A DNA stretch of 64,000 nucleotides from an uncultured Planctomycetales bacterium (GTDB lineage: Bacteria; Omnitrophota; Gorgyraeia; Zapsychrales; JANLHA01): contig CAYYRJ010000002.1 of NCBI GenBank assembly GCA_964474085.1, forward strand, positions 6,110 through 70,109, written 5' to 3'. The notes beneath the pieces were generated by a model that was not told the DNA's origin, did no database searches, and saw only the letters and a list, made by a program, of their open reading frames with translations. Positions 15,675 to 55,412 of this stretch are shown piece after piece. Made by a program: the position numbers and the translations under genes. The first letter of the stretch is position 1; each line of letters begins with the position of its first letter.

Positions 15675-15690
15675 TTTTGTCTTCGCGGGA

Positions 15691-15827: not shown

Positions 15828-15898
15828 GCGGGAGTAGTTCAGTGGTAGAACGCTAGCCTTCCAAGCTGGTCACGAGGGTTCGATTCCCTTCTCCCGCT
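15828..15898 (+). tRNA. tRNA-Gly (anticodon UCC)
   Basis: 71 nt; acceptor GCGGGAG/CTCCCGC, anticodon arm CTAGC-CTTCCAA-GCTGG, T-loop TTCGATT. Confidence 0.85.
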
Positions 15899-18974: not shown

Positions 18975-19048
18975 CGGAGCGTAGCGCAGTTGGCTAGCGC
19001 ACTTGAATGGGGTTCAAGAGGTCGTGAGTTCAAACCTCACCGCTCCGA
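18975..19048 (+). tRNA. tRNA-Pro (anticodon GGG)
   Basis: 74 nt; acceptor CGGAGCG/CGCTCCG, anticodon arm CTTGA-ATGGGGT-TCAAG with G37, T-loop TTCAAAC. Confidence 0.85.
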
Positions 19049-34508: not shown

Positions 34509-35046
34509 AAAAGAGTACGATCTTAATTTAAAAGGCCACGAAACGCTTCTTGAAGTGTTGCGCGATCAGCTTTCGCTAACCGGGACAAAAACCGCCTGCG
34601 AAGAAAGCGAATGCGGCACATGTACGGTAACTATCGACGGAAAAGCCGTCTTGTCCTGCATTACACTGGCTGCCGACTTAGAGGGGGAAGAAATCACCAC
34701 AATCGAAGGCTTGGCCGATGGAGACAATCTTCATCCCGTCCAGCAAGCCTATGTTGATTATGGCGCTGTCCAATGCGGATTTTGCATTCCCGGGATGATC
34801 ATGTCCTCTAAGGCGCTATTGGATAAAAACCCTGACCCCACTCAAGAAGAAATCGAGTATGCTTTAGACGGTAATATTTGCCGATGCGCCGGGTACCCTA
34901 AAATTTTTGATGCGGTCCGAAAAGCCGGCGAGTGTATCAAAAACGGCGGGACAAAAACAGAAGAACAGATCGACAAAAAAGAAAAATTTAAAAACACAAT
35001 GGCCAAAGGCATAACGTACGAAGAATTTCTTAAACTTCAAAAATAA
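34486..35046 (+). CDS. molybdenum hydroxylase [2Fe-2S] (small) subunit, CoxS/XdhA-like
   Basis: CEESECGTCTV plant-type ferredoxin cluster and CGFCIPGMIMS...CRCAGY second cluster. Confidence 0.85.
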   Translation: MTKLIINKKEYDLNLKGHETLLEVLRDQLSLTGTKTACEESECGTCTVTIDGKAVLSCITLAADLEGEEITTIEGLADGDNLHPVQQAYVDYGAVQCGFCIPGMIMSSKALLDKNPDPTQEEIEYALDGNICRCAGYPKIFDAVRKAGECIKNGGTKTEEQIDKKEKFKNTMAKGITYEEFLKLQK

Positions 35047-35078
35047 CCACTAACCACCAACGACTAACCATTGCTTTT

Positions 35079-37436
35079 ATGAGCGTATCGATCAATTCTT
35101 CCCACGACCCCATACACCTTAACCCCGTCGGAAAAAGTGTGCCGCGTATTGAAGGCAAGGGGATCGTGACGGGTCAGACAAAATATGTTTTTGATGTGTC
35201 GTTCCCCAATATGTTAGTGGGCAAAATGATCCGCAGCCCCTATCCGCATGCTAAGATTTTAAAAATCGATACGACCAAGGCAGAACAACTGCCGGGTGTG
35301 CGCGCGATTATTACGGCCAAAGACACGTACAATATCAAGTTTGGATCCAATGAATATTTCTTTCCCCACACCGTCGACCAAATGGCCCTGGAGTCCGAAA
35401 AGGTGCGTTATATCGGCGATGAAATCGGTGCCGTGGCCGCAGTCGATGAAGAAACCGCTCTGGCCGCCCTTGATCTTATTGACGTTGAATACGAACAGTT
35501 GCCGTCGGTCACAGATGTTTTGGACGCGATGAAGCCGGGTGCCCCGCAGATTCATGAAGCGATGAACAATATCGGCGTTATTTTACCGGTTAACTTTGGA
35601 AATCCCGACCGTGCGCTTAAAGAATCTTTTCATGTTCGCGAAGACAAATTTTATGCCTCGGCAGCTGCCATGGCGGCGCTCGAACCGCATGTTTGCGTAG
35701 GCCAGTGGGAAACTTTTTCGAACAAAATCACTTTATGGGCTTCAAGCCAGGCGCCGTTTAAGTGCCGCGAAGCACTCGCCAAGACTTTGAAAATGGACCT
35801 CAACAATATCCGCGTCATTAAGCTTGCCGTCGGCGGCGGCTTTGGGGGAAAACTCGAAATGCTTCCGATGGATTTTGCGGCGTGTCTTTTGTCAAAAAAA
35901 GCCGGTGGCCTTCCGGTCAAAATTTGCTATAACCGTGAAGAAGAATTTTCTTTTTCCCGTCGCAAGCACGCGATGTATTACAAAGTCAAAACCGGTGTCA
36001 CCAAAGAAGGCTTGCTGACTGCGATGACCGGTGAGGTCATTGCCGACGGTGGCGCTTATTGCAGCTATGGCCCGACGGTCATGGCCGCAGCGATCATGCG
36101 GATTTTTATGGTTTATAAAATCCAGCATTTTCGCATCAACGGTTATCGTGTTTACACCAATACGCCGATCAGTGGCGCGATGCGCGGATTTGGCGGGGTC
36201 CAATCGGGATTTGCCATCGAGTCGCACATGGATTTATTAGCCAAAGATATCGGACTTGACCCGATCGAATTTCGGCTTAAAAATATTACGACCCCCAATA
36301 TGGTGACCGTCAACAAAATGATTTTGACAACCAATGGCCTTAAAGAGTGTATTGAAAAAGCTGCGGCAGCCGCAGAGTGGACAAAAAAGCGCGGGAATAA
36401 AGATTACTTTAAGACCGGCATTCTTCGTCGGGGAGTGGGAATTGGGATCGCGGCAGATGTTATGGGGTCAAAGATGTATAAGTCGCATGAAAGCGCAGGG
36501 GCGATTGTCAAAGTCGAAGAAGACGGGTCTGTTTATCTTTTTACAGGGGCAGCCGACACCGGACAGGGATCAAACACCGCACTTTCGCAAATTGCCGCGC
36601 ACGCTTTAGGTGTTAAATATGAACGGATCAAATGCACCTCCGGCGACACCGAAACAACGCCTTTTGACACCGGAAGCTTTGCCAGCCGCGTTACGTTTAT
36701 TTCCGGTAATTCGGCTTTACGCGCCGGGCAGGATGCCAAAATGCAAATTTTAGAAATCGTCGCGCAGGAATACAAAATTGATATCCATGATCTTGATCTT
36801 GTCGCCGAGCAAGTTATTAATAAAAAAACGAATGCCGTGCTTATGAATTTTGACAAAGCCCTCGAGCTTTGCTATTCATTTAATTACGGCAAACAGATTA
36901 TCGGCCGCGGCAGCTATAATCCGACGACAACGCCAATCGATTTTCGGACCGGCGAGGGAAATGTTTCCGGTAGTTATGGCTTTGAAGCGCAAATCGCAGA
37001 AGTTGAAGTCAACACCGAAACCGGCGAAGTCAAAATATTAAGCATGTGGGATGCGCATGATATCGGTAAGGCGATTAACCCGCAGTCTGTCGAAGCACAA
37101 ATCGAAGGGTCGCTGGCCATGGGAATCGGCTACACATTTACCGAAGACTTGCGTTTTAAAAATGGGCGTGTGGTCAATCCCAATTTTGCCAATTACCGGG
37201 TGCCGCGCTCGATTGGAATTCCGCAAATGCACTCGATTCTCGTCGAAACAAACGACCCTGAAGGCCCCTATGGGGCAAAGGGGATGGGGGAGGCTTCACT
37301 TTTGCCAACATCCGCGGCCATTGCCAACGCTATTGAAGATGCCTGCGGGGTTCGTATCAAGGAACTTCCGATTACGCCGGCTAAGATCATTGCCGGATTA
37401 AAAGCTTTAGACAATCTTTCACAAAATCATTCTTAG
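35079..37436 (+). CDS. molybdenum hydroxylase molybdopterin-binding (large) subunit (xanthine dehydrogenase / aldehyde oxidoreductase family)
   Basis: 785 aa; Ald_Xan_dh_C hammerhead N-terminus and MoCo-binding domains (GGGFGGK, AHDIGKAINP, EASLLPTSAAIANAI). Confidence 0.85.
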   Translation: MSVSINSSHDPIHLNPVGKSVPRIEGKGIVTGQTKYVFDVSFPNMLVGKMIRSPYPHAKILKIDTTKAEQLPGVRAIITAKDTYNIKFGSNEYFFPHTVDQMALESEKVRYIGDEIGAVAAVDEETALAALDLIDVEYEQLPSVTDVLDAMKPGAPQIHEAMNNIGVILPVNFGNPDRALKESFHVREDKFYASAAAMAALEPHVCVGQWETFSNKITLWASSQAPFKCREALAKTLKMDLNNIRVIKLAVGGGFGGKLEMLPMDFAACLLSKKAGGLPVKICYNREEEFSFSRRKHAMYYKVKTGVTKEGLLTAMTGEVIADGGAYCSYGPTVMAAAIMRIFMVYKIQHFRINGYRVYTNTPISGAMRGFGGVQSGFAIESHMDLLAKDIGLDPIEFRLKNITTPNMVTVNKMILTTNGLKECIEKAAAAAEWTKKRGNKDYFKTGILRRGVGIGIAADVMGSKMYKSHESAGAIVKVEEDGSVYLFTGAADTGQGSNTALSQIAAHALGVKYERIKCTSGDTETTPFDTGSFASRVTFISGNSALRAGQDAKMQILEIVAQEYKIDIHDLDLVAEQVINKKTNAVLMNFDKALELCYSFNYGKQIIGRGSYNPTTTPIDFRTGEGNVSGSYGFEAQIAEVEVNTETGEVKILSMWDAHDIGKAINPQSVEAQIEGSLAMGIGYTFTEDLRFKNGRVVNPNFANYRVPRSIGIPQMHSILVETNDPEGPYGAKGMGEASLLPTSAAIANAIEDACGVRIKELPITPAKIIAGLKALDNLSQNHS

Positions 37437-39387: not shown

Positions 39388-40410
39388 ATGAAAGAAAAAA
39401 ATCTGCAAATACGTAACAGCACAGCGGAATTCCTGATCTTCACAGGTCAGTCGGGCGATAAAAGCATTGAGGCGCGGTATGAAGACGAAACGATCTGGCT
39501 GACACAAAAATTAATGGCTGAATTGTTTGATGTCGCTATCCCAACAATTAACGAGCATCTCAAGAACGTCTTTTCAAGCAAAGAGGTCGACGAGAAGTCA
39601 GGTATTAGGAAATTCCTAACAACTGCCGCGGACGGCAAAAAATACCATACGAATTTCTATAATCTGGACACGATCATTTCAGTCGGATATCGGGTGAATT
39701 CTTTACGTGCCACTCAATTCCGGCAATGGGCAACCCGTATTTTGAAAGACTTCGCCATCAAAGGGTATGTGCTGGATAAGAAACGGCTGGAGAATGGCGC
39801 TTTTCTTGGTGAGGATTACTACGAACGGGTATTGGAAGAAATCCGTGAAATACGCTTGAGTGAACGGCGTTTTTATCAAAAAATTACGGATATTTACTCG
39901 ACGAGCATGGATTATAACCCTCAGTCTTCTATCACCCAAGAATTTTTTGCAAAAGTGCAAAATAAATTACATTTCGCGATCCACGGATATACGGCCGCAG
40001 AATTGATTGTGCAGCGGGCGGACAGCCAAAAAAAACACATGGGATTAACGTCATGGGAAAAAAGCCCCACTGGTAAGGTATTAAAGAGTGATGTTAGCGT
40101 GGCAAAGAATTATCTGACCAAAGACGAAGTAGAATCGCTGGGACGCATTGTTAACGCGTACCTGGATTTGGCTGAAGACCGGGCGCGTCGAAGAATGCCA
40201 ATGACAATGGAAGATTGGTCAAAGCGTCTGGACATGTTCTTGCAGGTCGCAGACAGAGATATTTTAAAAGACAGCGGGAAGATAACGGCTCAGATTGCCA
40301 AAGAACATGCTGAAAATGAGTTTGAAAAATACCGTATTGTTCAGGATCGTTTATTTCAAAATGATTTTGATCGTGAAATAAAATATCTTAAAAATAAAAA
40401 AAACAAATAA
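39388..40410 (+). CDS. RhuM-family virulence/accessory protein
   Basis: WLTQKLMAELFDV...TINEHLKNVFSSKEVDEKSGIRKFLTTAADGKKYHTNFYNLDTIISVGYRVNSLRATQFRQWATRILKDFAIKGY is a close match to the RhuM family core. Confidence 0.75.
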   Translation: MKEKNLQIRNSTAEFLIFTGQSGDKSIEARYEDETIWLTQKLMAELFDVAIPTINEHLKNVFSSKEVDEKSGIRKFLTTAADGKKYHTNFYNLDTIISVGYRVNSLRATQFRQWATRILKDFAIKGYVLDKKRLENGAFLGEDYYERVLEEIREIRLSERRFYQKITDIYSTSMDYNPQSSITQEFFAKVQNKLHFAIHGYTAAELIVQRADSQKKHMGLTSWEKSPTGKVLKSDVSVAKNYLTKDEVESLGRIVNAYLDLAEDRARRRMPMTMEDWSKRLDMFLQVADRDILKDSGKITAQIAKEHAENEFEKYRIVQDRLFQNDFDREIKYLKNKKNK

Positions 40411-40439: not shown

Positions 40440-41030
40440 TTAAATAACTTTTTTATGAATCGATTGCAATTCTTGCACGGTATTAAAGGATAGAAGCACA
40501 CCATTATCATCAACACGCAGAGTTTTAACATCCATCGGATGGTTATATAAAATTGAATTAAGCCCACGATCATCCGGCATGTTAAGAATTTCCTCGCGCA
40601 AAGCAAGACCAAAAAAAGGAGGATGACCTTTTTTATCCTCAAACGTCGGAACAAGTATTAAAGGCTGCGTGCGCAAAAATTCTTCAACGATAATATTTAA
40701 TGTTTGTATTTGGATCAACGGAAAATCCACCGGCAAAAGACCGACAGCTTGTCCCGACGGCAAAACATTTTGTAATCCTGCCTTAAAAGAAGATGTCTGC
40801 CCTAATTTATAATCTTTATTATAGACAACCTTAATCTTGTTATGCTTTAATAGAAACGGTTTGATTTGGTCAGCATACGCTCCAAGAACAACAATAATCT
40901 CGTCGAGATTGGTCGACAAAAGTGTATTTTGCAAATGCACGATTAGAGGGACACCGCGCCAGGACGCCAACGCTTTAGGAGAACCAAAGCGCGTGCTTAA
41001 ACCGCCACTTAACAGAATTAAACTGACCAT
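40440..41030 (-). CDS. MobA-like NTP transferase (molybdenum cofactor cytidylyl/guanylyltransferase, MocA/MobA-like)
   Basis: LILLSGGLSTRFGSPKALASWRGVPLI N-terminal nucleotide-binding motif; probable maturation factor for the molybdenum hydroxylase at 33651-37436. Confidence 0.7.
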   Translation of the reverse strand: MVSLILLSGGLSTRFGSPKALASWRGVPLIVHLQNTLLSTNLDEIIVVLGAYADQIKPFLLKHNKIKVVYNKDYKLGQTSSFKAGLQNVLPSGQAVGLLPVDFPLIQIQTLNIIVEEFLRTQPLILVPTFEDKKGHPPFFGLALREEILNMPDDRGLNSILYNHPMDVKTLRVDDNGVLLSFNTVQELQSIHKKVI

Positions 41031-42715: not shown

Positions 42716-43540
42716 ATGAATCCTGTAATCAAAAAAGCGTTTGAAGCTGCGCAAAAAGGGCAAAGTTTTGCCTTTGCGACAATTATCAAAGCAACGGCTA
42801 AAGGCACACCGCGCAAGGCCGGCGCCAAAATGGTCGTTTTTTCCGACGGAACAATCGACGGAACAATCGGCGGCGGACGCAATGAGAAAGCGGCGATCGC
42901 GCAGTGCTGCAAAGCGCTACAAACCGGACAGGCCACAACCGTCACGTACAATTATTTTGGAAACGAAGGAGAATCTGTTTGCGGCGGGCAAATGGACGTT
43001 TTTATCGAGCCGTTTGCCGGACAAAAACACCTGATTATCTGCGGCGGCGGACATATTGCTTTGCCGTTGTCATTTTTGGGGAAACTGCTTAATTTTAAAG
43101 TCACCATCATTGATAATCGCAAAGAATTTGCCAACAAAAAACGTTTTGCTTACGTCGATAAAGTGATTTTGGGCGATCATCCTATTGATTTAGACAAACA
43201 AAAAACCGACGAGAATACCTATATTGTTATTGTCACGCAAGGCAATGAATATGATTACGCGTGCCTTAAAACCGCGATCAAAAAAAACTTTGCGTATCTT
43301 GGGGTGATCTCCAGCAAAGCCAAACGGATCAAATTTTTTAGCCGGCTTAAAAAAGATGGCATTTCTGAAAAATTATTCAGGAAAGTCCACATTCCAACCG
43401 GCTTAGACATCGGAAGCCAAACACCCGAAGAAATCGCCATTTCCATTGCTGCTGAAATCATCCAAACGACAAATAAAAACTTTATAAAATCTGCCAAATT
43501 TGCGGAAAAATCGAAACAACCCTACAAAGGAGCTCTTTAA
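42716..43540 (+). CDS. XdhC/CoxI-family molybdenum hydroxylase maturation factor
   Basis: XdhC_CoxI N-domain (FAFATIIKATAKGTPRKAGAKMVV) and Rossmann C-domain HLIICGGGHIALPLSFLGKLLNFKVTIIDNR. Confidence 0.8.
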   Translation: MNPVIKKAFEAAQKGQSFAFATIIKATAKGTPRKAGAKMVVFSDGTIDGTIGGGRNEKAAIAQCCKALQTGQATTVTYNYFGNEGESVCGGQMDVFIEPFAGQKHLIICGGGHIALPLSFLGKLLNFKVTIIDNRKEFANKKRFAYVDKVILGDHPIDLDKQKTDENTYIVIVTQGNEYDYACLKTAIKKNFAYLGVISSKAKRIKFFSRLKKDGISEKLFRKVHIPTGLDIGSQTPEEIAISIAAEIIQTTNKNFIKSAKFAEKSKQPYKGAL

Positions 43541-43952: not shown

Positions 43953-43973
43953 TTCTTTGAGAAACAAAATACG

Positions 43974-44006
43974 AGGTTGGCCTCAAAACCAACCTCTCTC
44001 TTTTTA
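43974..44006 (+). terminator. rho-independent terminator
   Basis: GAGGTTGG-cctcaaaa-CCAACCTC followed by tctctttttaa. Confidence 0.5.
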
Positions 44007-44116: not shown

Positions 44117-44527
44117 TTATAGCGAACTTGGACTGGGTATGCCTTTGACAAGATGGGCGACATTCTCCGAAACAAGACTTTCCTTGCGCGCCGCAACAGC
44201 AGAATCTTTCGTTGCCACACGTTGGCGAACGCCAATCTGGGCATCCCCCATCTGAATCTTGATAATTTTTCCATTAACAAGCGCATCTGCAATCTTTCGA
44301 CGCGCCTGACGAACCGCTCTGCCAAAGCTTGCCCGAGAAAGCTTCATTGCCAGAGCTCCTTGAGTCTGGCTAAACATTTGGAAGTCAGCCAACTTGAATG
44401 CCTCAAATTCATCGATGAACAAAACAACTTCCTCTGGTCGGCCAGGCTTGCCCCGAGGACTAAATTGCCGCACCGCCGGCATTTTTTGAATGTAGCGGAC
44501 CTTTTTGGGACGTCCTTGCTGCGCCAT
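44117..44527 (-). CDS. DUF134 / UPF0251-family DNA-binding protein
   Basis: MAQQGRPKKVRYIQKMPAVRQFSPRGKPGRPEEVVLFIDEFEAFKLADFQ...SRASFGRAVRQARRKIADALVNGKIIKI matches the UPF0251 pattern (GRPKKxR...F.P.G...E.v.L..DE.EA.rL.D...lsQ..aA..M.VSR.Tf.R.l..AR.KiA.ALv.Gk); GGGAGG RBS before ATG 44527. Confidence 0.7.
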   Translation of the reverse strand: MAQQGRPKKVRYIQKMPAVRQFSPRGKPGRPEEVVLFIDEFEAFKLADFQMFSQTQGALAMKLSRASFGRAVRQARRKIADALVNGKIIKIQMGDAQIGVRQRVATKDSAVAARKESLVSENVAHLVKGIPSPSSL

Positions 44528-44741
44528 GCGCGCCCTCCCTTTTAAATGTTGAAAATCCAGCAAATCATCAAATGCCAGGATATTTGGATTCACATGCTCA
44601 AAATAACCGGCAGGTACTTTTAAGCATATGCTCATAAGTACTATAGTGTTCTTTTGAGCATTTGTAAAATAATATCATGGGGATTTTTAATTCGTTTTTT
44701 CCGACGAGATTTTTACAAAACAACGATTAGCTATGGAGAGA

Positions 44742-45800
44742 TTACAAACTCTGGAGGGCTATTGAGATAAAGCGAGACAGCTGCTGGACATCGCGAACGA
44801 TGTGCTCAATTCCAGCGGCAGCATCATGCTCGTGACTTTTTGTGCACAGGTTAAGCACACCTATAACCTTCTCTTCTACAATCAGAGGAATCACAATGGA
44901 GTGCTTAATTTCGGGGCGTTTTAGAAATGGCCGCAAGGATGCGTTACTTTCTGTACCCTTTATAAAAAGTGGGGTTTTTTCCTTGGCTGCAAACCCGGCA
45001 ATCCCTTCCCCAATTTTTATACGCGACTGCAGAATGTTTTTCTTGTTTTCAAGTCCGCGCGAAACCCGGATACTAAATTCCCCGGTTTGCGGATCTAAAA
45101 GCATAATCGACCCTCCCTGCGCATGCGACATTTTGATTGCGCTGTCAAGAATCGAGACCAAAAGTTCATCTTCTTGAATCGTCGCAAAAATATCTTGGGC
45201 CGCATCAATAATTTCAGGGCGGACAATTTGACTTGCCGATTGCATAGAATGCAATTTCGTTTTTTCTGATTCAAGCTCCAAAACATCCCTGACCACTTCA
45301 GCCAATAAATCCAAAATCGCATTGGCTGCCGAACTGGACATCTGCGGGACACAATGAATATCTTTCAAAAAATCATCAGCAAGAATACCTAGCTGATCCG
45401 CCAAAGCCAAATATTTTGCATCCGGCCACGGCTTATTCATCACAATCGGTCCAGCAATTAAATAAAGTTTTGCCTCGTCATTTTCAATAACTACGGGAAC
45501 GGCAAAAACATGTAGATCAAAAGGGTCAACCATCTGCAACAAACTGTCACTTTGAGTAAAATTTGCCAAAAGAATACCCTTCTCTTGATTGACCTCAAAA
45601 GCAAAAGTTTTTTTCAAAAGCGAAACGCCAAAATCCCCTTTTTGCCCTGAAGGACTCAACGCAACGATCAGCTGACCGCTGGGATCAACAGCAAAAATAC
45701 TAAGGCCAAGAACATCTTCAAATTGGTTAAGGAGATTACGCCACTTTTGCGGCTGTGACATCATTACACGAACCGAAGCGTTGACGGCGGGATTTTCCAT
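44742..45800 (-). CDS. sensor-domain protein (PocR-like N-terminal region plus C-terminal GAF domain), no output domain
   Basis: C-terminal GAF-like region GGSIMLLDPQTGEFSIRVSRGLE...KIGEGIAGFAAKEKTPLFI...GVLNL; N-terminal 180 aa resembles PocR-type ligand-sensing domains. Confidence 0.5.
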   Translation of the reverse strand: MENPAVNASVRVMMSQPQKWRNLLNQFEDVLGLSIFAVDPSGQLIVALSPSGQKGDFGVSLLKKTFAFEVNQEKGILLANFTQSDSLLQMVDPFDLHVFAVPVVIENDEAKLYLIAGPIVMNKPWPDAKYLALADQLGILADDFLKDIHCVPQMSSSAANAILDLLAEVVRDVLELESEKTKLHSMQSASQIVRPEIIDAAQDIFATIQEDELLVSILDSAIKMSHAQGGSIMLLDPQTGEFSIRVSRGLENKKNILQSRIKIGEGIAGFAAKEKTPLFIKGTESNASLRPFLKRPEIKHSIVIPLIVEEKVIGVLNLCTKSHEHDAAAGIEHIVRDVQQLSRFISIALQSL

Positions 45801-45857: not shown

Positions 45858-46838
45858 CTAGATATCCCAATCAAACTGGTTAGATTTACGTCGATCCGCT
45901 TTATTACGCATAATCAACTGATTTTCTTCGTAAACCACCAAAGAATTTGCAGGGACGCTGTGCATAATAAAAACATTGGCGCCGATTGTGGAGTTAGCGC
46001 CAACAACGGTATCACCGCCTAAGATTGTTGAGTTGGGATATATGGTGACATTACTTTGAACATCCGGATGGCGCTTGCCGCCTTTGACAATATGGCCGCT
46101 GTCATCTTTTGCAAAACTTCGTGCGCCCAAAGTGACCCCATGGTAGAGCTTGACGCGCTCTGCGATGCGGCATGTTTCACCGATAACTACACCAGTCCCA
46201 TGGTCTATAAAAAAATACCGCCCTATTTCGGCGCCCGGATGTATATCAATCCCGCTACGGCTATGCGCCCATTCAGTCATCATTCGGGGAATAATCGGGG
46301 CGCCCGACTTATATAAGACATGCGCCACGCGTTGTATGGCCATAACTTCTATAAAAGGATACGCCAAAATAATCTCTTCACGAAGCCGAACAGCGGGATC
46401 ACCTTCAAAAGCGGCTTCGATATCAGTTTGCAAAAGCTCGCGGATACTAGCAAGAGCGCAGCAAAACTCTTTTAAAATCGGCGGAGTTCGCCCGGTAGGT
46501 TTATGTGGATCACCGACTCGAACAGCTTTTCGGACTTGATCTTCGAGCTTTTTTGCGACACGTTCAAAACGGCTCGAGGTAATTTCTGCTAAAGTTGAAT
46601 GCGAAAGAGCATCATTGTCATGAAAACCCGGAAAAATAATTTGAAGCAAATCCTCACAGATCTGACCGACCGCACGCTTTGAGGGCATATTGTGGACGTC
46701 GCGGTGATTAAGCCCGCCGACCTTTTCATACGATTCTAAAAGGCTGGGGACATAAATTTGATACGCTCCATCCGAAGGCTGTGCTTCAAGAAGTTCTTTA
46801 AGCGAATCTTTAAGTGGAGAAAAATTTTTGTCCGACAT
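45858..46838 (-). CDS. cysE: serine O-acetyltransferase, long form with N-terminal extension
   Basis: SATase_N-like helix region then hexapeptide LbH DIHPGAEIGRYFFIDHGTGVVIGETCRIAERVKLYHGVTLG. Confidence 0.85.
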   Translation of the reverse strand: MSDKNFSPLKDSLKELLEAQPSDGAYQIYVPSLLESYEKVGGLNHRDVHNMPSKRAVGQICEDLLQIIFPGFHDNDALSHSTLAEITSSRFERVAKKLEDQVRKAVRVGDPHKPTGRTPPILKEFCCALASIRELLQTDIEAAFEGDPAVRLREEIILAYPFIEVMAIQRVAHVLYKSGAPIIPRMMTEWAHSRSGIDIHPGAEIGRYFFIDHGTGVVIGETCRIAERVKLYHGVTLGARSFAKDDSGHIVKGGKRHPDVQSNVTIYPNSTILGGDTVVGANSTIGANVFIMHSVPANSLVVYEENQLIMRNKADRRKSNQFDWDI

Positions 46839-46844
46839 GGCATT

Positions 46845-48590
46845 TTATTTTGTTTTTCGCGGCAATTTTTCCAAAGCTCGAATCAAAACATCGACTTCTT
46901 CTCTGGTATTATAAAAAGCTAAAGACGGTCTGACTGTTGTGTCTAAACCAAATCGCCGCAATGAAGGTTGCGCGCAATGATGACCCGCGCGCACGGCAAT
47001 CCCATGTTCGTCTAAATACTTTCCGATTTCTACCGGCGTATACCCTTCCCTAACAAATGATAAAACGCCAGCCTTGTTTACCGCTGTGCCTATCAAACGC
47101 AATCCGGGAATAGTTTCCAAGCCCGCCGTCGCGTACTCTAAAAGCTCATGCTCATACGCCGCGATAGCCGCTAAACCGGTGCGCATCAAATATTCAACAG
47201 CAGCACCTAAACCAACAACGCCGGCAATATTTGGCGTGCCAGCTTCAAATTTATTGGGCAGACCTTCAAAAGTTGTTTTTGTAAACGTAACTTCTTTAAT
47301 CATATTGCCCCCGCCCTGCCACGGCGGCATACTTTCCAATAAAGCCTTTTTCCCGTACAAAACACCAATTCCCGTCGGGCCAAAAATTTTATGTCCTGAA
47401 AATGTAAAGAAATCTGCGTCCATCGCCTGAACATTGACCGGCATGTGCGGGGTCGATTGCGCGCCGTCAACGAGAACAGGGACGCCATGCGCGTGAGACA
47501 AAGCAATGATCTCTTCAACAGGATTAACCGTGCCCAAAGCATTAGCAACTTGTGTAATAGAAACGAACTTTGTCCGCGAACTAAAAAGCGCAGCAAATTG
47601 TTCTAAAAGCAACTCCCCTTTATCATTGATTGGCGCAACCCGAATGACAGCCCCCGTCTGTTTCGCAAGCATTTGCCACGGGACAATATTCGCGTGATGT
47701 TCCATGGTCGTAATAATAATTTCGTCGCCTGCGCCAATATTTTCGCGGCCATAGGATTGAGCAACAAGATTAATAGCTTCCGTCGTGCCGCGCACAAAAA
47801 TAATCTCTTGCGGCAAAGCCGCCCCCAAGAATTGACGGACTTTTTCTCTGGCTCCCTCATAAAGGTCAGTCGCCCTCGCTGCTAAAGCGTGCGCAGCGCG
47901 GTGAATATTAGAATTGTCGCGACCATAAAAACGGGATGTCGCTTCAATAACACATAAGGGCTTATGCGTTGTTGCGGCATTATCTAACCAAATGAGCGGT
48001 TTACCATTAACGCTTTGGTGTAAAGCCGGAAAATCGCGGCGCACCGACTGAACATCAAAATTCGTTTTAGCCACCGGCGGCTTAAGCGGCCATTGCGTCG
48101 AGGAAACAACTGGGTCAACATCTTCTTGATTAAGAAAATACAATGAATGCGCATCCTGTTTTTCGGCTTTAGTCTTAAAAGTTTCGCTGTGGCGCGAAAC
48201 TTCGTGCGTCCCTTCTTCTTCAAGACGCGGTTCGCCGAATTGATACGAGTCAACTGCGCCGGGCGAATATTCGCCGGAGTCAACAGATTTCGCATCAGAA
48301 AATTCTTCAGCAGCCGGATGAACCGGCGGCGCATAGGCCTCGGTTTTAGCCGGATAAACACCAGCCAGACCATTATCTTTTGCCACTGACCTTCCATCAA
48401 CACTCTGGGTGCTAATGGGTGCCGAGACATTCATAAATTCTGAATAAAACTCATTTGCCAAACGCGTGATCAATTTTGTGTCAAACGGATCCTCTCTGGA
48501 CGCCAGAGCTTGTGATTGATTCGGATTAGGATTTGTCATAGCTATGATAATTGTTGATCTCAACATTTTGAAGTTGCGCAATCGCGTCAT
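46845..48590 (-). CDS. SufS/CsdA-type cysteine desulfurase with about 190-aa intrinsically disordered N-terminal extension (candidate encapsulin cargo-loading domain)
   Basis: PLP-lysine motif SGHKIFGPTGIGVLYGK, TTMEHHANIVPWQ, active-site Cys RAGHHCAQPSLRRFGL; N-terminal 190 aa is Pro/Ser/Glu/Ala-rich low complexity; start ambiguous (48590, 48566 or 48539), all overlapping the upstream shell gene. Confidence 0.85.
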   Translation of the reverse strand: MTRLRNFKMLRSTIIIAMTNPNPNQSQALASREDPFDTKLITRLANEFYSEFMNVSAPISTQSVDGRSVAKDNGLAGVYPAKTEAYAPPVHPAAEEFSDAKSVDSGEYSPGAVDSYQFGEPRLEEEGTHEVSRHSETFKTKAEKQDAHSLYFLNQEDVDPVVSSTQWPLKPPVAKTNFDVQSVRRDFPALHQSVNGKPLIWLDNAATTHKPLCVIEATSRFYGRDNSNIHRAAHALAARATDLYEGAREKVRQFLGAALPQEIIFVRGTTEAINLVAQSYGRENIGAGDEIIITTMEHHANIVPWQMLAKQTGAVIRVAPINDKGELLLEQFAALFSSRTKFVSITQVANALGTVNPVEEIIALSHAHGVPVLVDGAQSTPHMPVNVQAMDADFFTFSGHKIFGPTGIGVLYGKKALLESMPPWQGGGNMIKEVTFTKTTFEGLPNKFEAGTPNIAGVVGLGAAVEYLMRTGLAAIAAYEHELLEYATAGLETIPGLRLIGTAVNKAGVLSFVREGYTPVEIGKYLDEHGIAVRAGHHCAQPSLRRFGLDTTVRPSLAFYNTREEVDVLIRALEKLPRKTK

Positions 48591-49503
48591 CTGTTAATAC
48601 TGCCGCCGAAAAATAACGGGTAACCAAATGCGAAGCGATCGAATATTCATTAGTGCTCATATACCGGACGGAAAGACCGTCTTCAATTTCACCGGCCACA
48701 CCCGCCTTTTGCAAACCAACGACGCCTTGTTCGTTTTCACCGACGCGTAACAATAAAATACTTGTCGTGGCGGTATTTTTGTTGACTTTAAGCGCCAATT
48801 TATCGCTGGGCACCAAGGGAACCCCGCGCCAAGTTAAAAACGGAACCCCAAAAAGCTGCACTGTCGGCGGAGGAACTCCGCGTCGGGTACATTCCCGGCC
48901 AAAAGCCGCTATCGCCTTAGGATGAGCCAAAAAGAAAGCCGGTTTTTTCCAAACTAAACTTAAAAGTTCATCCAAATCATCAGGCGTAGGCGATCCTTTT
49001 CGGGTGCTGATTGTCTGGTCGGAAGAAATCTCACGAATAAGTCCAAAATCCGGATTGTTGATCAGCTCCCACTCTTCTCTTTCCTTAAGAGCTTCGATAA
49101 TCAAGCGGATCTGCTCGCGCAATTGGTCAATCTTATTGCTGTAAAGATCCGTGACGCGCGTATGCGTATGAACGACGGTTTGAATCGTGCTCAAATGAAT
49201 TTCTCGGGGATGTTTTTCATAATTGACAAAAGTCGTCGGCAATTTGGGTTCGCCGCTTTCAACCGTCAAGAGATCAACCTTGGCCTCGCCATGTCCGCCC
49301 GGACTATTGTCATCTTTAGATTTTGAAACACGATTCAAACGGTAAACACCGCCATCAATATGCACATACGGCAAAAGACGCAACAGCCAACGCGGGGTAA
49401 TCTGCGCCATTTGCGGGACCGTAACCGTCGCGGTCGCGAGATTGCGCGCAACAAAAGCGCTTAAACTTAATTGTGGATGGGATTGATCTGATGACTTTAC
49501 CAT
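48526..49503 (-). CDS. candidate Family 2A encapsulin shell protein (HK97-fold nanocompartment), context-based call
   Basis: 325-aa soluble protein immediately upstream of and overlapping a cysteine desulfurase with a long disordered N-terminal domain, followed by a long-form CysE. This gene order matches the described Family 2A encapsulin sulfur-storage operons; no domain recognisable by eye. Confidence 0.5.
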   Translation of the reverse strand: MVKSSDQSHPQLSLSAFVARNLATATVTVPQMAQITPRWLLRLLPYVHIDGGVYRLNRVSKSKDDNSPGGHGEAKVDLLTVESGEPKLPTTFVNYEKHPREIHLSTIQTVVHTHTRVTDLYSNKIDQLREQIRLIIEALKEREEWELINNPDFGLIREISSDQTISTRKGSPTPDDLDELLSLVWKKPAFFLAHPKAIAAFGRECTRRGVPPPTVQLFGVPFLTWRGVPLVPSDKLALKVNKNTATTSILLLRVGENEQGVVGLQKAGVAGEIEDGLSVRYMSTNEYSIASHLVTRYFSAAVLTDDAIAQLQNVEINNYHSYDKS

Positions 49504-49830
49504 AACGTTTCCTTTTCTGTTAAAAACTGCTAATAATAAAATAAAAAACCCACTGCCGTGTAAATTCGGTAGTGGGTTGTCCCATCCTACAAAACTATTT
49601 AAATTATGACCTGCAGAAAAAAATATTGGACATTGGTGTTTCCAGCCGTCCTGTAGTCTCGTGACTTAGGGACTTTATAACACAGACAATTAGTAAACGT
49701 CAAATATTATTTCAGAATGCCCTCACAAAAATACACTCATGAAAAGTCAACTGCAACTTATCGTGCCACAAAAATTTGACTTTCCCAAAAAACTATCGTA
49801 TTTGATCTTCTGATTTCATTTAACGCTAAA

Positions 49831-50727
49831 CTACAACCAACAATCTGACTCGTGCTCAACATCAAATTTATAAATCAACTGGATTCGTTTTTTTATCTCG
49901 ATCAATTTGGGGTCAGTTCTTATTCTTGGTCTTGGCAGAGCAACAGGAATGGTGTTACGGATCGATCCTGGCGCCCTTGAAAATACAATAATCTCATCTG
50001 ATAGATAGACAGCTTCGTCCAAATCGTGTGTCACAAGAACAATAGTCTTACCAGTTAAACTCCAAATTTTTAAAAGGTCATCCTGAAGATCCTCTCGACT
50101 TTGAGTATCGACCGCGGCAAATGGTTCATCCATTAATATAATTTCAGGCTCAAAGGATATTGCTCTTGCCAGCGCAAGTCTCTGACGCATTCCACCCGAA
50201 AGCTGAGATGGATACTTATTTCTTGATGCCTCAAGTCCAACCCCCCTCAAATATTGTCGAGCCAAATATTCGCGTTCAGAAACCGAAACCCCACGCATAC
50301 GCAATGTAAAAGTAACATTTTCAAGCGCTGTCATCCACGGGAACACAGCATAATCTTGAAAGATCATGGCAATATCGTGGCGTGACCGATCTTTTACCAA
50401 ACTATTGGATATAGGAGAAAGAAACCGATACTTCTTGCGATAAGCCTCAATTTCATCTCTTGATGCAGGCAACGGTTCGAGAACCAGCTTGCCATTGATA
50501 TAAACTTGTCCGTCCGACGGCGCCTGAAGCCCCGCCAAAATTTCCAAAAACGTTGATTTCCCGCACCCGCTAGGGCCAACCAAGGAAACAATTTTTCCCT
50601 TAGGAATAGAAAGCGAAACAGAATGGACAGCCGTTAATCCTTCCGCTGTCCGGTCGGGATTCACAATAGAAAAAAATTTCGTAATTCCACGCGCTTCAAT
50701 CATACAAATTACCGACCCACTTTCCAA
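49831..50727 (-). CDS. ABC transporter ATP-binding protein, NitT/TauT (sulfonate/nitrate/taurine) family
   Basis: Walker A GPSGCGKST, signature LSGGMRQR, Walker B IILMDEPF; alternative start at 50703 (MIEARGITKFF). Confidence 0.85.
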   Translation of the reverse strand: MESGSVICMIEARGITKFFSIVNPDRTAEGLTAVHSVSLSIPKGKIVSLVGPSGCGKSTFLEILAGLQAPSDGQVYINGKLVLEPLPASRDEIEAYRKKYRFLSPISNSLVKDRSRHDIAMIFQDYAVFPWMTALENVTFTLRMRGVSVSEREYLARQYLRGVGLEASRNKYPSQLSGGMRQRLALARAISFEPEIILMDEPFAAVDTQSREDLQDDLLKIWSLTGKTIVLVTHDLDEAVYLSDEIIVFSRAPGSIRNTIPVALPRPRIRTDPKLIEIKKRIQLIYKFDVEHESDCWL

Positions 50728-51554
50728 ACAGCCAGTTTTAACTCAATAAATTTCATGATTTCAATCAGAAACCACCCGAACGCGCCCAGGACAATCATGC
50801 ATACAACCATACGGCTTATCAAAAAGAAATCCTTGGATTCAACCAATAAAAACCCTATTCCGGTCCGGCCCCCGTTCATTTCTGCAATCACAAGCATCAC
50901 TAAACCAAGTGCAATGCCGATCTTGATCCCCATGATAATCGAACTAAGCGCATGCGGCAAATAGACATACCGTATTAACGTTAATTCGCTAGCCCCAAAT
51001 ACTCTTGCTGAAGCTACATAACGAGGGTCCGTATCTTTAACACCCTGATAAGTATTAAACAGCACCGGATAAAAGACACCAAGAAAAATAAGAAATGTCT
51101 GCATCGGCAATCCAACACCAAAAATGATAATGGTCAAAGGCACCCAAGCTGGCGGCGGTATCGGAGCTAACAATTGAAAAAGAGGCAAGCAATGCTTACG
51201 GATATACAAATTCCAGCCCATAGCTGTTCCGATTGGGAGAGCCAACAACAACGCAAAGAAAAATCCAAAGAAGAATCTTTTCAAACTGTCCGCCAAATGA
51301 CCAAGTAAATTTTTATGCAGTAGCATATCTACAAATGTTTTAGCAACTTCAGACGGGGGAGGAACAAGCGACCGAGGGACAACTCCTATCGAGGGCAAAA
51401 TTTCCCAAAGAATCAAAAGAGGAATAATAACTTTCAAAAACTCTCGTGTCACGAGGCTACCAGCTGAATTCTTCAAAAACAAGAATAATTCACTGCGCAC
51501 CTTGTCGACAAGACGAATTTCGTGTTGGTTATCATCTTTTTTAATATTATCCAT
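50709..51554 (-). CDS. ABC transporter permease, NitT/TauT family (SsuC/TauC-like)
   Basis: 281 aa, six TM helices, conserved permease EAA-like loop region (ARVFGASELTLIRYVYLP). Confidence 0.8.
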   Translation of the reverse strand: MDNIKKDDNQHEIRLVDKVRSELFLFLKNSAGSLVTREFLKVIIPLLILWEILPSIGVVPRSLVPPPSEVAKTFVDMLLHKNLLGHLADSLKRFFFGFFFALLLALPIGTAMGWNLYIRKHCLPLFQLLAPIPPPAWVPLTIIIFGVGLPMQTFLIFLGVFYPVLFNTYQGVKDTDPRYVASARVFGASELTLIRYVYLPHALSSIIMGIKIGIALGLVMLVIAEMNGGRTGIGFLLVESKDFFLISRMVVCMIVLGAFGWFLIEIMKFIELKLAVWKVGR

Positions 51555-51568
51555 GTCTTACAATCCCG

Positions 51569-52489
51569 CTATTTATTTTCATGGCCATGATGATCTTCAC
51601 CTGCAGAATGACGATGTCCCCTTATTGCGTCTAGCATCGCTTGCGTGACATCAGTATATGAAGACAACGGCAACTGCGATAAAGCAGAATCAGGGTAACC
51701 CAAATTCCGGGCAACAGATTTTCTAACGAGTTCAGGCGAAACAGTCTCCGCCAACTTCAAGTCAGCAATCAACTGATCAAATCGTCTGTCCCCCTTTTTT
51801 ACCACAAAAAGCCATTCGATCTGGGCGATGATCGCTGGGCAACATTCATCTCCGGCGGCCACATCCCAATTCTGATACAACAACGAATGGCCCTGTAATT
51901 CTGCCAGTGCCGCATAAGACCCTTTGACCAAAATGGCATCGACCACCCGCGCTTCCAGCGCAGGTAACATCGTGTCAAAAGTCAAAACCGTTGTTTGTAA
52001 GGAATCCACGTTCAGCCCGAGCCTCTTTGCATCCCTACGGAACTGTTTCCAAAGAACACATGACGGACCTGACACCGCAATTTTCTTCCCGACAAGCTCC
52101 GGTAATCTTAAATGAAAATCTTTGCGCATAACCAATGCCGCACCATAAGGGAAAGTGATCGCCCCTTTAAACTCAAACTGCCCCTCCCCACCACGCTCAA
52201 TAAATGCAAAAGTTGTTTTGTCAACAAATCCTGCAGGAATTGATCCCGACAAAAGAGCGATGCCAACATCACTGCTTGACGAAAACCTCTTAGGGGCGAC
52301 CCTTCCGTCTGCTTTCTCTTTTGCCATATCAAGGGCGATGAAAAAAGGTGCTAAAAGAGGGGTGGCGACATATCCAACAACTGGCAACTGCGGACTTTGT
52401 AATGCCTTAATTGCGATCAAAGTCGTAATCAAGACAATAAAGGTCATTAGAAAGACTAGAACTTTGTTTTGATAATATGACGCCACCAC
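51569..52489 (-). CDS. NMT1/THI5-like (SsuA-like) substrate-binding protein with N-terminal membrane anchor
   Basis: N-terminal TM helix, then periplasmic-binding-protein-like sequence; adjacent to the NitT/TauT permease and ATPase. Confidence 0.6.
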   Translation of the reverse strand: MVASYYQNKVLVFLMTFIVLITTLIAIKALQSPQLPVVGYVATPLLAPFFIALDMAKEKADGRVAPKRFSSSSDVGIALLSGSIPAGFVDKTTFAFIERGGEGQFEFKGAITFPYGAALVMRKDFHLRLPELVGKKIAVSGPSCVLWKQFRRDAKRLGLNVDSLQTTVLTFDTMLPALEARVVDAILVKGSYAALAELQGHSLLYQNWDVAAGDECCPAIIAQIEWLFVVKKGDRRFDQLIADLKLAETVSPELVRKSVARNLGYPDSALSQLPLSSYTDVTQAMLDAIRGHRHSAGEDHHGHENK

Positions 52490-52514
52490 GCCTCCACTTA
52501 ATTAGATAACCTTA

Positions 52515-53459
52515 TTACCAAGTCACGTTTTTAAACTCCTCAGCATAAAGCTTGTCACCAGGATTTTCCTTGATCGTACCGATGGCAACTAATTCATCGG
52601 CTAAAGCACCCAAGCCTTCGCGGTCAAGATTCGTCTGAAACTTGAGACGTCCATTACCATGAGCAATGGCATCTTTGGGCGCACCGGTAAATTGCTGGGC
52701 GATCGTAAGGATCTCCTCGGACGTTGGATCGTTTAAAATCAACTCGTTGGCTTTTTGAATTGCTTGAATAAATTTCTTTACCGCGTCGGGATTTTGCTTA
52801 ACGAACGCCTTACGCGCATTGATCGTGCGGCAAGGAATATTGGAAGAAGCATCCTTGAGAATAACCTTGAACCCTTTGAGCTCGGCAATACTGACATGTG
52901 GCTCCTCAAGGATCGCGCCATCGACCTTGCCAGCTTCAAGAGCGGCAATAGCCGGTCCACCAGCCAGTTTTTCAAGATTGAAACTTCCGCCAGCCTCACG
53001 CACTTTCCTGGTATAAGAAATGACCGCTTCGCACGTCGGAGATATTCCGGCGATTTTTTTACCGATCAAATCGCTGTAACTGCGGATCGGAGATCCTTGC
53101 GGAACAACGAGGACTGATGTGCAGGGCTTTTTGACTTGTGCGATAAGGCAGATTGGAGCGCCGTTGGCAGCCGCGCTAATTGCCGCTGTCGGGCAGGTAA
53201 AATAAATATCCGCTGATCCTGAAACCACCAGATCGCGTGACGCCGCGGCGTCCACAACAGGCACAACCGTTACGTCGAGACCTAACTCGGAGAAATACCC
53301 TTTTTCCTTTGCAACGTAAAGATTTAGGTGATGCGTTGTTTTTGCATCAGCTACATAAATCTTCACCGAACCCTGACCCGCTTGTGCACCCGCAGGGACA
53401 GTCGAAAAAAGCAAAGATGCCCCTAAAATAAATGATGTTATTTGATTTGTTTTTTTCAT
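52515..53459 (-). CDS. NMT1/THI5-like (SsuA-like) ABC substrate-binding protein, secreted
   Basis: Signal peptide MKKTNQITSFILGASLLFSTVPAGAQA; KIYVADAKTTHHLNLYVAKEKGYFSELGLDVTVV typical of SsuA/TauA/NMT1 binding proteins. Confidence 0.75.
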   Translation of the reverse strand: MKKTNQITSFILGASLLFSTVPAGAQAGQGSVKIYVADAKTTHHLNLYVAKEKGYFSELGLDVTVVPVVDAAASRDLVVSGSADIYFTCPTAAISAAANGAPICLIAQVKKPCTSVLVVPQGSPIRSYSDLIGKKIAGISPTCEAVISYTRKVREAGGSFNLEKLAGGPAIAALEAGKVDGAILEEPHVSIAELKGFKVILKDASSNIPCRTINARKAFVKQNPDAVKKFIQAIQKANELILNDPTSEEILTIAQQFTGAPKDAIAHGNGRLKFQTNLDREGLGALADELVAIGTIKENPGDKLYAEEFKNVTW

Positions 53460-53533: not shown

Positions 53534-54823
53534 TTAAAACTTATACAGGAATGTCGTTTGAACGCGATGAGCATCCGCTTTCTGTTTATCAAACCACTTG
53601 GTATTAAAAGTTTGATACTCAAGAGCCACAAGAATATCCTTGCTTAAGCTGTATTTCACGTTGGTATAGTACGTTTTATTAACATCCCAAAGAGCACTTT
53701 TATCGGCGTTTGAATAAGCAGAATTATCTTTTACATCATCAATACCGATACCAAAGTTAGCTTCGACGTTGTTAACCGGGATGTAAGACAATTCAGCAAA
53801 ACCACCTTTGACTTCAATGGGTTTGCGATTGGCTTCTCCGGTGCGAGAGTCTAGCGTTTGCGCAGGCCCCCCACTGAATTTGTTTAAACCTTTTCCAACG
53901 AAACCTTCACTCTTAAAGGAAAGCCAATCCGTTAATTTAAGCGTCAAACTTACGGTTGTCGCCGCAAGCTCTTCGCTTCCAAGTCCCTTGCCAATAGTGT
54001 TAAACCGACCATAAAGACCGCCAACCCCTAATGTCGATTTAATCCCATAAACTGTTTTATCATATTGGGCATAGGCACCCAAAACCGGCAAACCGGAATC
54101 TTCCTGAACGGAATCATCAGAGTCTAGGGCGCCGACTTTGGTTGTCACAACTCCGCCTAAGGCCTCGCCCCACTTATTAGTGAGCGTAATCTGCGCATGC
54201 CGGACACCGATATTCCCGGATCTAAATAAGTACCCCGGATTCACCAGATTAGGCATTAAAGGGGCTACGAAATCCCAATCCTGCCCCGCCCGTAAACTCC
54301 ATTTCTGAAAAGATAAATCGGCATAGGCTAAACGCAAACGTGGCGTATATGTGCCGACCGTACTCCCACCAAAAAAATCAAATTCTACCTTCCCTGACAA
54401 TTTCCCACCGTTAAATAAATCAGGCGCTTTAAGATTTAAGCCCAACCGTGTATCCTGAGCTGAAAACTGTGTTTCAGGGTCATCTGATACGCTTGGACGA
54501 CTTGCATTGGTTTGAAGTGTTGAATTGACACCATTTCCTCCAGCATCACCACTAGAAAAAACCAAGTCCGTTTTAACCTGACCGTATAACTCAATTTCCC
54601 CCTTTGATTTGACAAAATTTCCTGCGCTAGGATTAGGTTTAGCCTTAAATTCTGATAACTCGTTTTTCTGCACAGCGTTTTCTCTTTCAAGCGAATCAAC
54701 ACGTGACGTAAGAGTCTTTATCTGTGTCACTAAGTCCTCCGTCTGATCTGCTGATGCTGGCATAGCAACACCGACCACCACAAATACGGCAGACCAAAAT
54801 CCTAATAAGTATTTCCTAGTCAT
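53534..54823 (-). CDS. outer-membrane beta-barrel porin-like protein with N-terminal coiled-coil segment
   Basis: Signal peptide (MTRKYLLGFWSAVFVVVGVAMPASA), alternating amphipathic beta-strands, C-terminal aromatic beta-signal ...TTFLYKF; strong RBS AAGGAG before ATG 54823 (tracker start 54883 less likely). Confidence 0.6.
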   Translation of the reverse strand: MTRKYLLGFWSAVFVVVGVAMPASADQTEDLVTQIKTLTSRVDSLERENAVQKNELSEFKAKPNPSAGNFVKSKGEIELYGQVKTDLVFSSGDAGGNGVNSTLQTNASRPSVSDDPETQFSAQDTRLGLNLKAPDLFNGGKLSGKVEFDFFGGSTVGTYTPRLRLAYADLSFQKWSLRAGQDWDFVAPLMPNLVNPGYLFRSGNIGVRHAQITLTNKWGEALGGVVTTKVGALDSDDSVQEDSGLPVLGAYAQYDKTVYGIKSTLGVGGLYGRFNTIGKGLGSEELAATTVSLTLKLTDWLSFKSEGFVGKGLNKFSGGPAQTLDSRTGEANRKPIEVKGGFAELSYIPVNNVEANFGIGIDDVKDNSAYSNADKSALWDVNKTYYTNVKYSLSKDILVALEYQTFNTKWFDKQKADAHRVQTTFLYKF

Positions 54824-55412
54824 TATCTTCTCCTTTTTTTTGTGTTTGACTAATTCACCATTTTGTATGTAATCGCCTAACAAAATGCATTAAGCGTCAT
54901 ATCTCCCCAGAACCAGACCTTAATAAAAAAAGTCCTTATTAAATACCTTTGGGCTCGCAGAGCTTATTGCTCCGTAGTCAATTCAAAAGTTATTTGCCAA
55001 TAATTTTTGGCAAATAAAAAGGCCCAAAACACATTCGGGTTGAACCGAAAATATTTTGAGCCTCCAGATGTCTGGTGAGCCTGTTTATTAATGAAGCTTC
55101 AACACAACAACTTGCCAACTTAAATCACACACGACAAAAACAATTTTTCACAACTCAAACCACAATGCCTACTATCCCTATAGTCTTTATAGGCTTATAA
55201 TTTAGCATAAAAAATTTTCTTGTCAACATTTTTTATTTCCTATTACATTTCAAGAGTAAAAGATATTAAACACAATAACTTACAACTCAAACCGCTTCCT
55301 AAGAAATCTATTAAAAATACACTTAAAACTCCTTGATGAACCTTCTTCGAAAACTTTACGACACAAATCTACAAAAACCCTCAAAATTTCTTTCGCCTCT
55401 CACGATCTAAAT

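Follow-up and report, generated by a model that had tools for sequence, protein, structure and literature searches.

A 64,000-nucleotide stretch of DNA (hereafter the window: positions 6,110 to 70,109 of the forward strand of contig CAYYRJ010000002.1, assembly GCA_964474085.1) very probably carries a chromosomal operon for a Family 2A desulfurase encapsulin, with shell, desulfurase and acetyltransferase but no rhodanese, and its host is most likely a member of Candidatus Omnitrophota. This is a known kind of bacterial sulfur-storage system and a well described one; an initial annotation, made from the raw sequence, had identified it correctly. The five minus-strand open reading frames (ORFs) on which that annotation was built are all present, and the identity that it gave to three of them, namely a Family 2A encapsulin shell, a cargo desulfurase and a serine acetyltransferase, is supported by curated profiles, by homology to solved structures and by cargo-loading motifs. 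Pfam and NCBIfam E-values from 1e-105 to 1e-243 put the matches far beyond chance. The core features are as follows, lengths being given in amino acids (aa):

48526..49503, minus strand: Family 2A encapsulin shell gene (325 aa, SrpI-like)
46845..48539, minus strand: cargo SufS-type (type II) cysteine desulfurase gene, 564 aa from M18
48590..46845, minus strand: longest ORF of the desulfurase, 581 aa
48060..48539, minus strand: predicted cargo-loading domain, the N-terminal 160 aa of the desulfurase
45858..46838, minus strand: accessory L-serine O-acetyltransferase gene, 326 aa, with a long N-terminal extension

The shell, cargo and acetyltransferase genes

The 325-aa protein had been proposed to be an encapsulin shell although no enzyme motif was recognised in it, and in profile searches it scores above the curated cutoff for Family 2A: it matches the NCBI model NF041162 encap_f2a with 448.9 bits (cutoff 380), residues 15-322 aligning to model positions 2-295 of 295. 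Its sole Pfam match is PF19307, the Type 2A encapsulin shell protein SrpI-like family (351.4 bits, cutoff 22.8, E 2.8e-105), and its closest named database relatives carry a Family 2A shell annotation. Among solved structures, the protein matches the shells of Acinetobacter baumannii (8T6R, E 1.9e-108, 56.9% identity over 304 aligned residues) and of Synechococcus elongatus (SrpI, 6X8M, E 1.9e-107, 58.3% identity over ~300 residues), as well as the mycobacterial Mmp1 entries (E ~1e-101). Alignment with the solved Family 2A shells extends from residue ~3 to residue 323 and includes the N-arm segment ITPRWL...GGVYRLNRV. An HK97-type fold with an extended N-arm is thus predicted from homology at 57-58% identity; the assignment rests on the solved structures because the AlphaFold2 model is unusable.

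Family 2B deserves separate consideration, given that a Family 2B model also scores on the shell. Its best stretch covers model positions 203-449, that is its C-terminal half, and the C-terminal ~250 residues of the query; similarly, the solved Family 2B shells (PDB 9BJE, 9BIX and 9BHU) have an HK97-fold core homologous to residues ~67-317 of the protein (E 1e-83 to 1e-89). However, these shells are 470-477 aa long and contain an internal cNMP-binding domain, the feature that separates Family 2B from Family 2A (Andreas and Giessen 2021), whereas the window shell is 325 aa long and no such domain (PF00027) is found in it by Pfam scan. On account of this length and of the undetected cNMP-binding domain, we do not place the shell in Family 2B. 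Compared with 8T6R and 6X8M, the shell has an extra loop of ~11 residues (residues ~62-72; window positions 49287-49319), which is common to the Verrucomicrobiota and Nitrospira relatives, where it reads KPANEFGE; being present in the nearest relatives too, the loop marks the clade. In the alignments to Family 2B shells, the place where similarity resumes past their cNMP-binding domain is near this loop.

The second gene had been read as a SufS-type desulfurase with intact active-site motifs, and this holds: the pyridoxal phosphate (PLP)-lysine motif SGHK is found at residue 398 and the catalytic-cysteine motif RAGHHCAQP at residue 534 (long-ORF numbering), and the protein matches TIGR01979 sufS with 557 bits (cutoff 475). 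It also passes the curated cargo model NF041166 f2_encap_cargo1 (808.8 bits, cutoff 800). Its best solved match is 8KG1, the encapsulated desulfurase of Mycobacterium smegmatis in an N-terminally truncated form (E 1e-176, residues 176-576), with free SufS and CsdB structures scoring lower (E ~1e-135 to 1e-143); in the PDB search no solved chain covers residues 1-175.

Where the cargo protein begins matters for the length of this N-terminal region. The supported start is M18, the ATG at 48539: position 1 of the N-terminal profile of the relatives aligns there, and the cargo begins at this codon also in a gene call made independently on an identical metagenome contig (L081). From this start, the cargo and shell genes overlap by 14 nt and the extension has 160 aa. 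Therefore, of the overlap of 14-65 nt initially envisaged, the lower value stands and the 65 nt implied by the longest ORF (from 48590) do not; likewise, the picture of a disordered extension rich in Pro, Ser and Glu was roughly right but its length of ~190 aa has to be reduced to 160 aa. In composition, the extension has 10.7% Ser, 10.1% Ala, 9.4% Glu and 8.8% Pro, against 3.7%, 11.6%, 6.7% and 4.9% in the catalytic domain. Its mean hydropathy (0.415) falls below the Uversky charge-hydropathy boundary (0.438), hence on the disordered side, which is not the case for the catalytic domain. Identity to relatives is 27% in the N-terminal domain and 71% in the catalytic domain. The hydropathy and composition proxies and this contrast in conservation point the same way: the N-terminal 160 aa are probably disordered.

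Despite its low conservation, the extension is recognizable. A loading-domain profile was made from the N-terminal domains encoded by cargo genes of 74 related loci, leaving out the window sequence, and the window cargo matches it with 88.5 bits (E 1.5e-26, 711 window open frames searched). Five conserved blocks align in the extension, DPFDTKLITRLANEFYSE, GLAGVYPA, APPVHP, SGEYSPGAVDSYQFGEPR and SLYFLN; five short, partly conserved motifs have been described in the loading domain (Benisch et al. 2024, PMC10836720). Most SrpI-associated desulfurases have the motifs LARLANEFFS and AASPYYFLDG (Nichols et al. 2021, PMC8049743), and the window cargo has its own versions of the two, LITRLANEFYS and AHSLYFLNQ. 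The conserved motifs expected of a cargo-loading domain, both the published pair and the five of the profile, are therefore found where the initial annotation had placed such a domain. The same profile revealed no second cargo among the 711 open frames (next best E 4.4).

The third gene proved to be what it had been called, a long-form serine acetyltransferase. It has Hexapep repeats by Pfam, the catalytic stretch DIHPGAEIG...DHGTGVVIG can be read in its translation, and it matches TIGR01172 cysE (153 bits, E 5e-45) and NF041874 EpsC (151.3 bits, cutoff 150). Serine acetyltransferase is listed as an accessory component of desulfurase encapsulin operons (PMC10836720), which come in four types: shell and desulfurase, with or without rhodanese and with or without acetyltransferase (Benisch et al. 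2024, PMC10836720). The window operon fits the type that has the acetyltransferase and lacks the rhodanese.

This arrangement is best judged against related loci. A scan of 185,579 species genomes yielded 531 loci encoding shell relatives, 80 of which were fetched. The best shell relatives, mostly from metagenome-assembled genomes (MAGs) of Verrucomicrobiota and Nitrospira, are 75-78% identical, none of them exceeding 78% in the entire scan. The desulfurase gene directly follows the shell gene in essentially all of the 80 loci, and most have an acetyltransferase homolog within a few kb (56-75% identity in Verrucomicrobiota, ~40% in Nitrospira). Relatives that keep the shell-cargo pair also keep the extension: an N-terminal domain of 67-271 aa (median 180) is present in 75 of 75 cargo proteins, the window's own included. 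Shell stop and cargo start overlap in most loci from Verrucomicrobiota (as a rule by 20 nt), while those from Nitrospira have a gap of 4-5 nt. Translational coupling, first suggested from the overlap in the window, is thus supported as a likely trait of the nearest clade, in which the overlap is conserved.

The identification as a sulfur-storing encapsulin operon nevertheless has several limits. First, no rhodanese is found in the window (best tblastn E 0.43; no Rhodanese domain in Pfam scans of ORFs of at least 90 aa). In many relatives, a rhodanese of ~180 aa with a YgaP-type C-terminal membrane segment and the active-site loop CRSGQRA is encoded between the cargo and the acetyltransferase (for example at 10672-11208 in locus L005, 10685-11209 in L009 and 7634-8167 in L083, among others); in the window, the spacer between the cargo stop and the acetyltransferase start is 6 nt, which leaves no room for it. 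Given that the rhodanese is optional, being present in ~50% of the described desulfurase encapsulin operons (PMC10836720), its absence is no bar to membership. Second, the acetyltransferase stays below the cysE equivalog cutoff (153 against 210 bits), and the cargo clears the cutoff of NF041166 by 9 bits only. Third, AlphaFold2 modelling of the shell from a shallow alignment (42 homologs, 72-79% identity) gave a mean predicted local distance difference test score (pLDDT) of 45.6 and a predicted template modelling score (pTM) of 0.37. Last, shell assembly, cargo loading and sulfur deposition would be extrapolated from homologs at 57-65% identity. Nothing in the evidence contradicts the identification of the operon.

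Leader, flanking genes and giant modular genes

The genes and elements around the operon are considered as its context and not as its core:

49831..53459, minus strand: Ssu/Tau-type ABC importer genes
50727..49831, minus strand: importer ABC ATPase
51554..50709, minus strand: importer permease
52489..51569, minus strand: 306-aa ORF, weakly SsuA-like
53459..52515, minus strand: SsuA-family binding protein
49536..49578, minus strand: terminator-like hairpin and U-run in the leader of the shell gene
44742..45800, minus strand: PocR+GAF gene
44117..44527, minus strand: DUF134 gene from its likely start M37 (longest ORF 44635..44117)
9042-13904, plus strand: modular ORF, 1620 aa
55413-58481, minus strand: modular ORF, 1022 aa
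58661-63973, minus strand: modular ORF, 1770 aa

The operon is directly downstream of the Ssu/Tau-type importer and of a porin-like gene, a position in keeping with a gene island for sulfur scavenging or sulfur starvation. The Pfam families of the importer genes are ABC_tran, BPD_transp_1 and NMT1; the NCBIfam matches of these genes (SsuA_fam with 104.6 bits, SaoP/TauC-like and SaoA/TauB-like) are all below cutoffs. The 306-aa ORF (51569-52489, minus strand) has an N-terminal transmembrane segment, matches the SsuA family very weakly (E 3e-4) and carries a tail rich in His, HRHSAGEDHHGHENK, at its C terminus; possibly it encodes a second binding protein of a divergent, membrane-anchored kind. 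Directly upstream of the importer, a 449-aa ORF (53534-54883, minus strand) matches no family; it has a hydrophobic N-terminal segment and a stretch resembling a coiled coil, and the rest of it is rich in Gly, Ser and Thr, with ...TTFLYKF at the end. By eye it looks like an outer-membrane porin made of a coiled coil and a beta-barrel.

The leader, between the stop of the ABC ATPase gene (49831) and the shell start (49503), is 327 nt long (49504-49830). It contains a hairpin of -15.7 kcal/mol followed by TTTTTTATTTT, the strongest terminator-like element that a custom scan detected between 43.9 and 50 kb on the minus strand, with a fold z-score of only -2.5. The hairpin lies 250 nt past the ATPase stop and ~33 nt upstream of the ribosome-binding site of the shell gene, AAAGGAAAcgttATG. 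A promoter would not fit into this short distance, so the shell gene can be transcribed only through the hairpin. The shell transcript could arise by read-through from the transporter genes or start at a promoter picked by eye at ~49703..49674, a site unlisted under the stricter rule of the promoter scan; the hairpin itself could serve in attenuation or as a terminator that is read through. No Rfam family matches it, the leader gave chance-level matches only under a permissive scan, and among 85 related loci the leader DNA is conserved only in the identical short contig L081. Upstream of the hairpin, the leader has a 9-codon ORF with one Cys codon, MSNIFFCRS; as a candidate attenuation peptide it is too weak for any claim.

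Downstream of the acetyltransferase gene, the two putative regulators noted initially on the same strand are indeed present. The first, a sensor-type protein, combines a PocR domain (E 1.1e-10) with a GAF_2 domain (E 7e-14) by Pfam, and no output or DNA-binding domain is recognisable in it. The second is a putative DNA-binding protein of the DUF134 family (PF02001, E 6.8e-23); it most likely starts at M37 (44527), because a GGGAGG ribosome-binding site precedes this codon and the Pfam domain begins at residue 37. The DUF134 gene has a promoter-like site of its own (44668..44640) and is followed by a terminator-like site (43996..43973). Since neither regulator has a homolog in any of the 80 related loci, they are treated as neighbours of the system and not as its parts, contrary to what the initial annotation may have implied.

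The three modular ORFs share an N-module of ~300 aa (E 3e-101 and 2e-83; 46% identity between the 1770-aa and 1022-aa ORFs) and a weaker C-module of ~70 aa (GGI[DN][LF]D ... PVIxNIxP), and differ in their central regions. For both modules, Pfam, NCBIfam and the PDB yielded no match. Searched against a database, the N-module found 1102 homologs, of which the named ones are nearly all hypothetical proteins of Candidatus Omnitrophota/Omnitrophica, many of them cut at contig ends. It is from these three paralogs, and not from marker genes, that the window is taken to be of probable Omnitrophota origin. The 1770-aa ORF has a signal-peptide or transmembrane-like start, and its frame is open to the end of the window. 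In this ORF, a complete canonical CysE (residues ~628-897; PDB 3GVD matched at E 3.7e-62) is fused with a PLP domain of Cys/Met metabolism that resembles methionine gamma-lyase (residues ~963-1304); its N-terminal ~580 aa and C-terminal ~470 aa match no family. The strand of the encapsulin operon hence bears a second acetyltransferase, no more than 13 kb from the operon.

Genes with the N-module also accompany sulfur genes elsewhere. Locus L083, a 13.8-kb contig whose shell is 76% identical, has in order a sulfate ABC (CysTWA) transporter, a CysK-like gene, shell, desulfurase, rhodanese and two N-module ORFs: this is a second Omnitrophota-like example in a sulfur-assimilation context. One of its N-module ORFs (1435 aa, within 8311-13813), directly after the rhodanese, has both modules around an FAD/DAO-type centre, and the other is at the contig end. 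The closest N-module relative (75% identity) is in L086 (1-11222), from the Omnitrophota MAG GCA_037141995.1, beside MetX/MetW, two Cys/Met PLP enzymes and a CBS-type PALP gene. This gene family may be truly linked to sulfur amino-acid loci, or the apparent link may be an effect of the high density of the family.

Elsewhere in the window are a molybdenum hydroxylase set of the xanthine-dehydrogenase family (FAD, 2Fe-2S and MoCo subunits) with XdhC and MobA-like maturation genes nearby (33651-37436, 40440-41030 and 42716-43540, mixed strands), a RhuM-family gene (39388-40410), and four tRNA genes (15466-15898 and 18975-19048, plus strand), the only Rfam matches at gathering thresholds. The remaining ORFs scanned are ordinary chromosomal genes.

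Proposed sulfur storage and alternative readings

By analogy with the solved shells 8T6R, 6X8M and 8WOL, 60 shell subunits would form an icosahedral particle (T=1, ~24 nm), in the interior of which the desulfurase dimer would be tethered, its N-terminal motifs binding discontinuously to the inner shell surface, as in S. elongatus, A. baumannii and M. smegmatis; for these homologs, encapsulation was shown to depend on the N-terminal domain of the cargo (PMC8049743, PMC10836720, PMC11659603). The desulfurase would convert L-cysteine to L-alanine and a persulfide, the sulfur accruing as elemental sulfur protected in the shell, while the serine acetyltransferase would make O-acetylserine, a cysteine precursor. 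Induction would occur under sulfur limitation. This is not unprecedented: in the literature such systems are sulfur stores that respond to sulfur starvation, and the desulfurase encapsulin of A. baumannii 118362 stores elemental sulfur and is induced ~10-fold under sulfur limitation (Benisch et al. 2024, PMC10836720). In the window, the genomic context, with a Ssu/Tau-type importer upstream, is consistent with a similar induction by sulfur starvation and with elemental sulfur storage.

The window operon resembles each of the characterized systems and yet differs from all of them: (i), A. baumannii 118362 (8T6R) likewise has a SufS-type cargo with a long, disordered, motif-bearing loading domain and a serine acetyltransferase in the operon, but its gene order is rhodanese, acetyltransferase, shell, desulfurase where that of the window is shell, desulfurase, acetyltransferase without rhodanese, its loading domain is longer (~225 aa against ~160 aa) and its shell is devoid of the ~11-residue loop at ~62-72; (ii), the SrpI/CyD system of S. 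elongatus (6X8M and 6X8T; Nichols et al. 2021, PMC8049743), with a shell 58.3% identical and both N-terminal motifs in common, is plasmid-borne and cyanobacterial, whereas the window system is chromosomal, probably from Omnitrophota, and sits beside a Ssu/Tau-type importer; (iii), Mmp1/Enc-CD of M. smegmatis (8WOL, 8WON and 8KG1; Tang et al. 2024, PMC11659603) has a disordered N-terminal domain (M1-I155) whose 155 aa come near the 160 aa of the window but, unlike the window system, it belongs to an actinobacterial lineage.

The compartment could be real and yet function mainly in controlled cysteine breakdown, in detoxification or in a protected persulfide supply (in a redox or anaerobic setting), under the control of the PocR/GAF and DUF134 proteins and not as a starvation store. 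With no rhodanese, the operon lacks the partner proposed to remobilise stored sulfur, but so do about half of the described operons (PMC10836720). The two sensor/regulator genes that follow on the same strand are lineage-specific, and before 43996 no terminator-like element reaches the strength of the leader hairpin; these regulators are however absent from 80 of 80 related loci, and the DUF134 gene apparently has its own promoter. A canonical CysE encoded 10 kb away suggests that the operon acetyltransferase is perhaps not needed for bulk cysteine synthesis, and the study of M. smegmatis emphasised that the shell protects the desulfurase from oxidation (Tang et al. 2024, PMC11659603). On the other hand, sulfur scavenging agrees with the importer upstream and with the sulfate transporter in the gene context of L083. 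We therefore consider a role other than storage unlikely, though it is the most serious of the alternatives.

A broader proposal is that the encapsulin operon is one module of an Omnitrophota-specific sulfur island, in which the hairpin (49578..49536) would act as a sulfur-responsive attenuator gating shell transcription and the flanking giant proteins would cooperate with the compartment. N-module genes flank the encapsulin operon of L083 (shell only 76% identical) too. We regard this proposal as doubtful, somewhat more so than a role other than storage.

There remain two readings without any compartment. In the first, the desulfurase would be a housekeeping SufS for iron-sulfur cluster assembly, next to an unrelated 325-aa protein. 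Its catalytic domain does match the general sufS model (557 bits, cutoff 475) and free SufS structures (~E 1e-135). Yet no sufBCDE is found among the scanned window ORFs of at least 90 aa, the N-terminal 160 aa of the protein form a domain that is specific to encapsulin cargo, its score is above the cutoff of the cargo-specific model, the solved structure closest to it is that of an encapsulated desulfurase, and its neighbour passes curated shell models. This reading is very improbable: it is effectively refuted by the cargo-specific domain, the cargo model and the shell-model match of the neighbour. In the second and least probable of all, the 325-aa protein would come from a decayed HK97-type prophage as its major capsid protein, given that encapsulins and phage capsids have the HK97 fold in common, that some homologs are annotated 'Phage capsid-like protein' by the JGI and that the shell weakly matches an unannotated PHROG family (23.8 bits); we reject it, as effectively refuted by the PHROGs scan, in which no family of phage capsids is matched while the encapsulin model gives 449 bits, and by gene context, with no portal, terminase, protease or integrase among the scanned ORFs, metabolic and housekeeping neighbours, and a shell-desulfurase pairing conserved across phyla.

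A Family 2A desulfurase encapsulin operon is thus our preferred reading, and it leaves the understanding of how these compartments work unchanged. No report of an encapsulin in Omnitrophota was found in the searchable literature, and the operon adds a well-supported example of a desulfurase encapsulin, apparently from Candidatus Omnitrophota, a phylum known almost wholly from MAGs. What is more unusual lies beside it, in the leader hairpin and in the giant modular genes of Omnitrophota with their CysE-PLP fusion. As a compact three-gene variant without rhodanese, located beside an organosulfur importer, it could provide a small test case for how stored sulfur may be recovered when no rhodanese is available.

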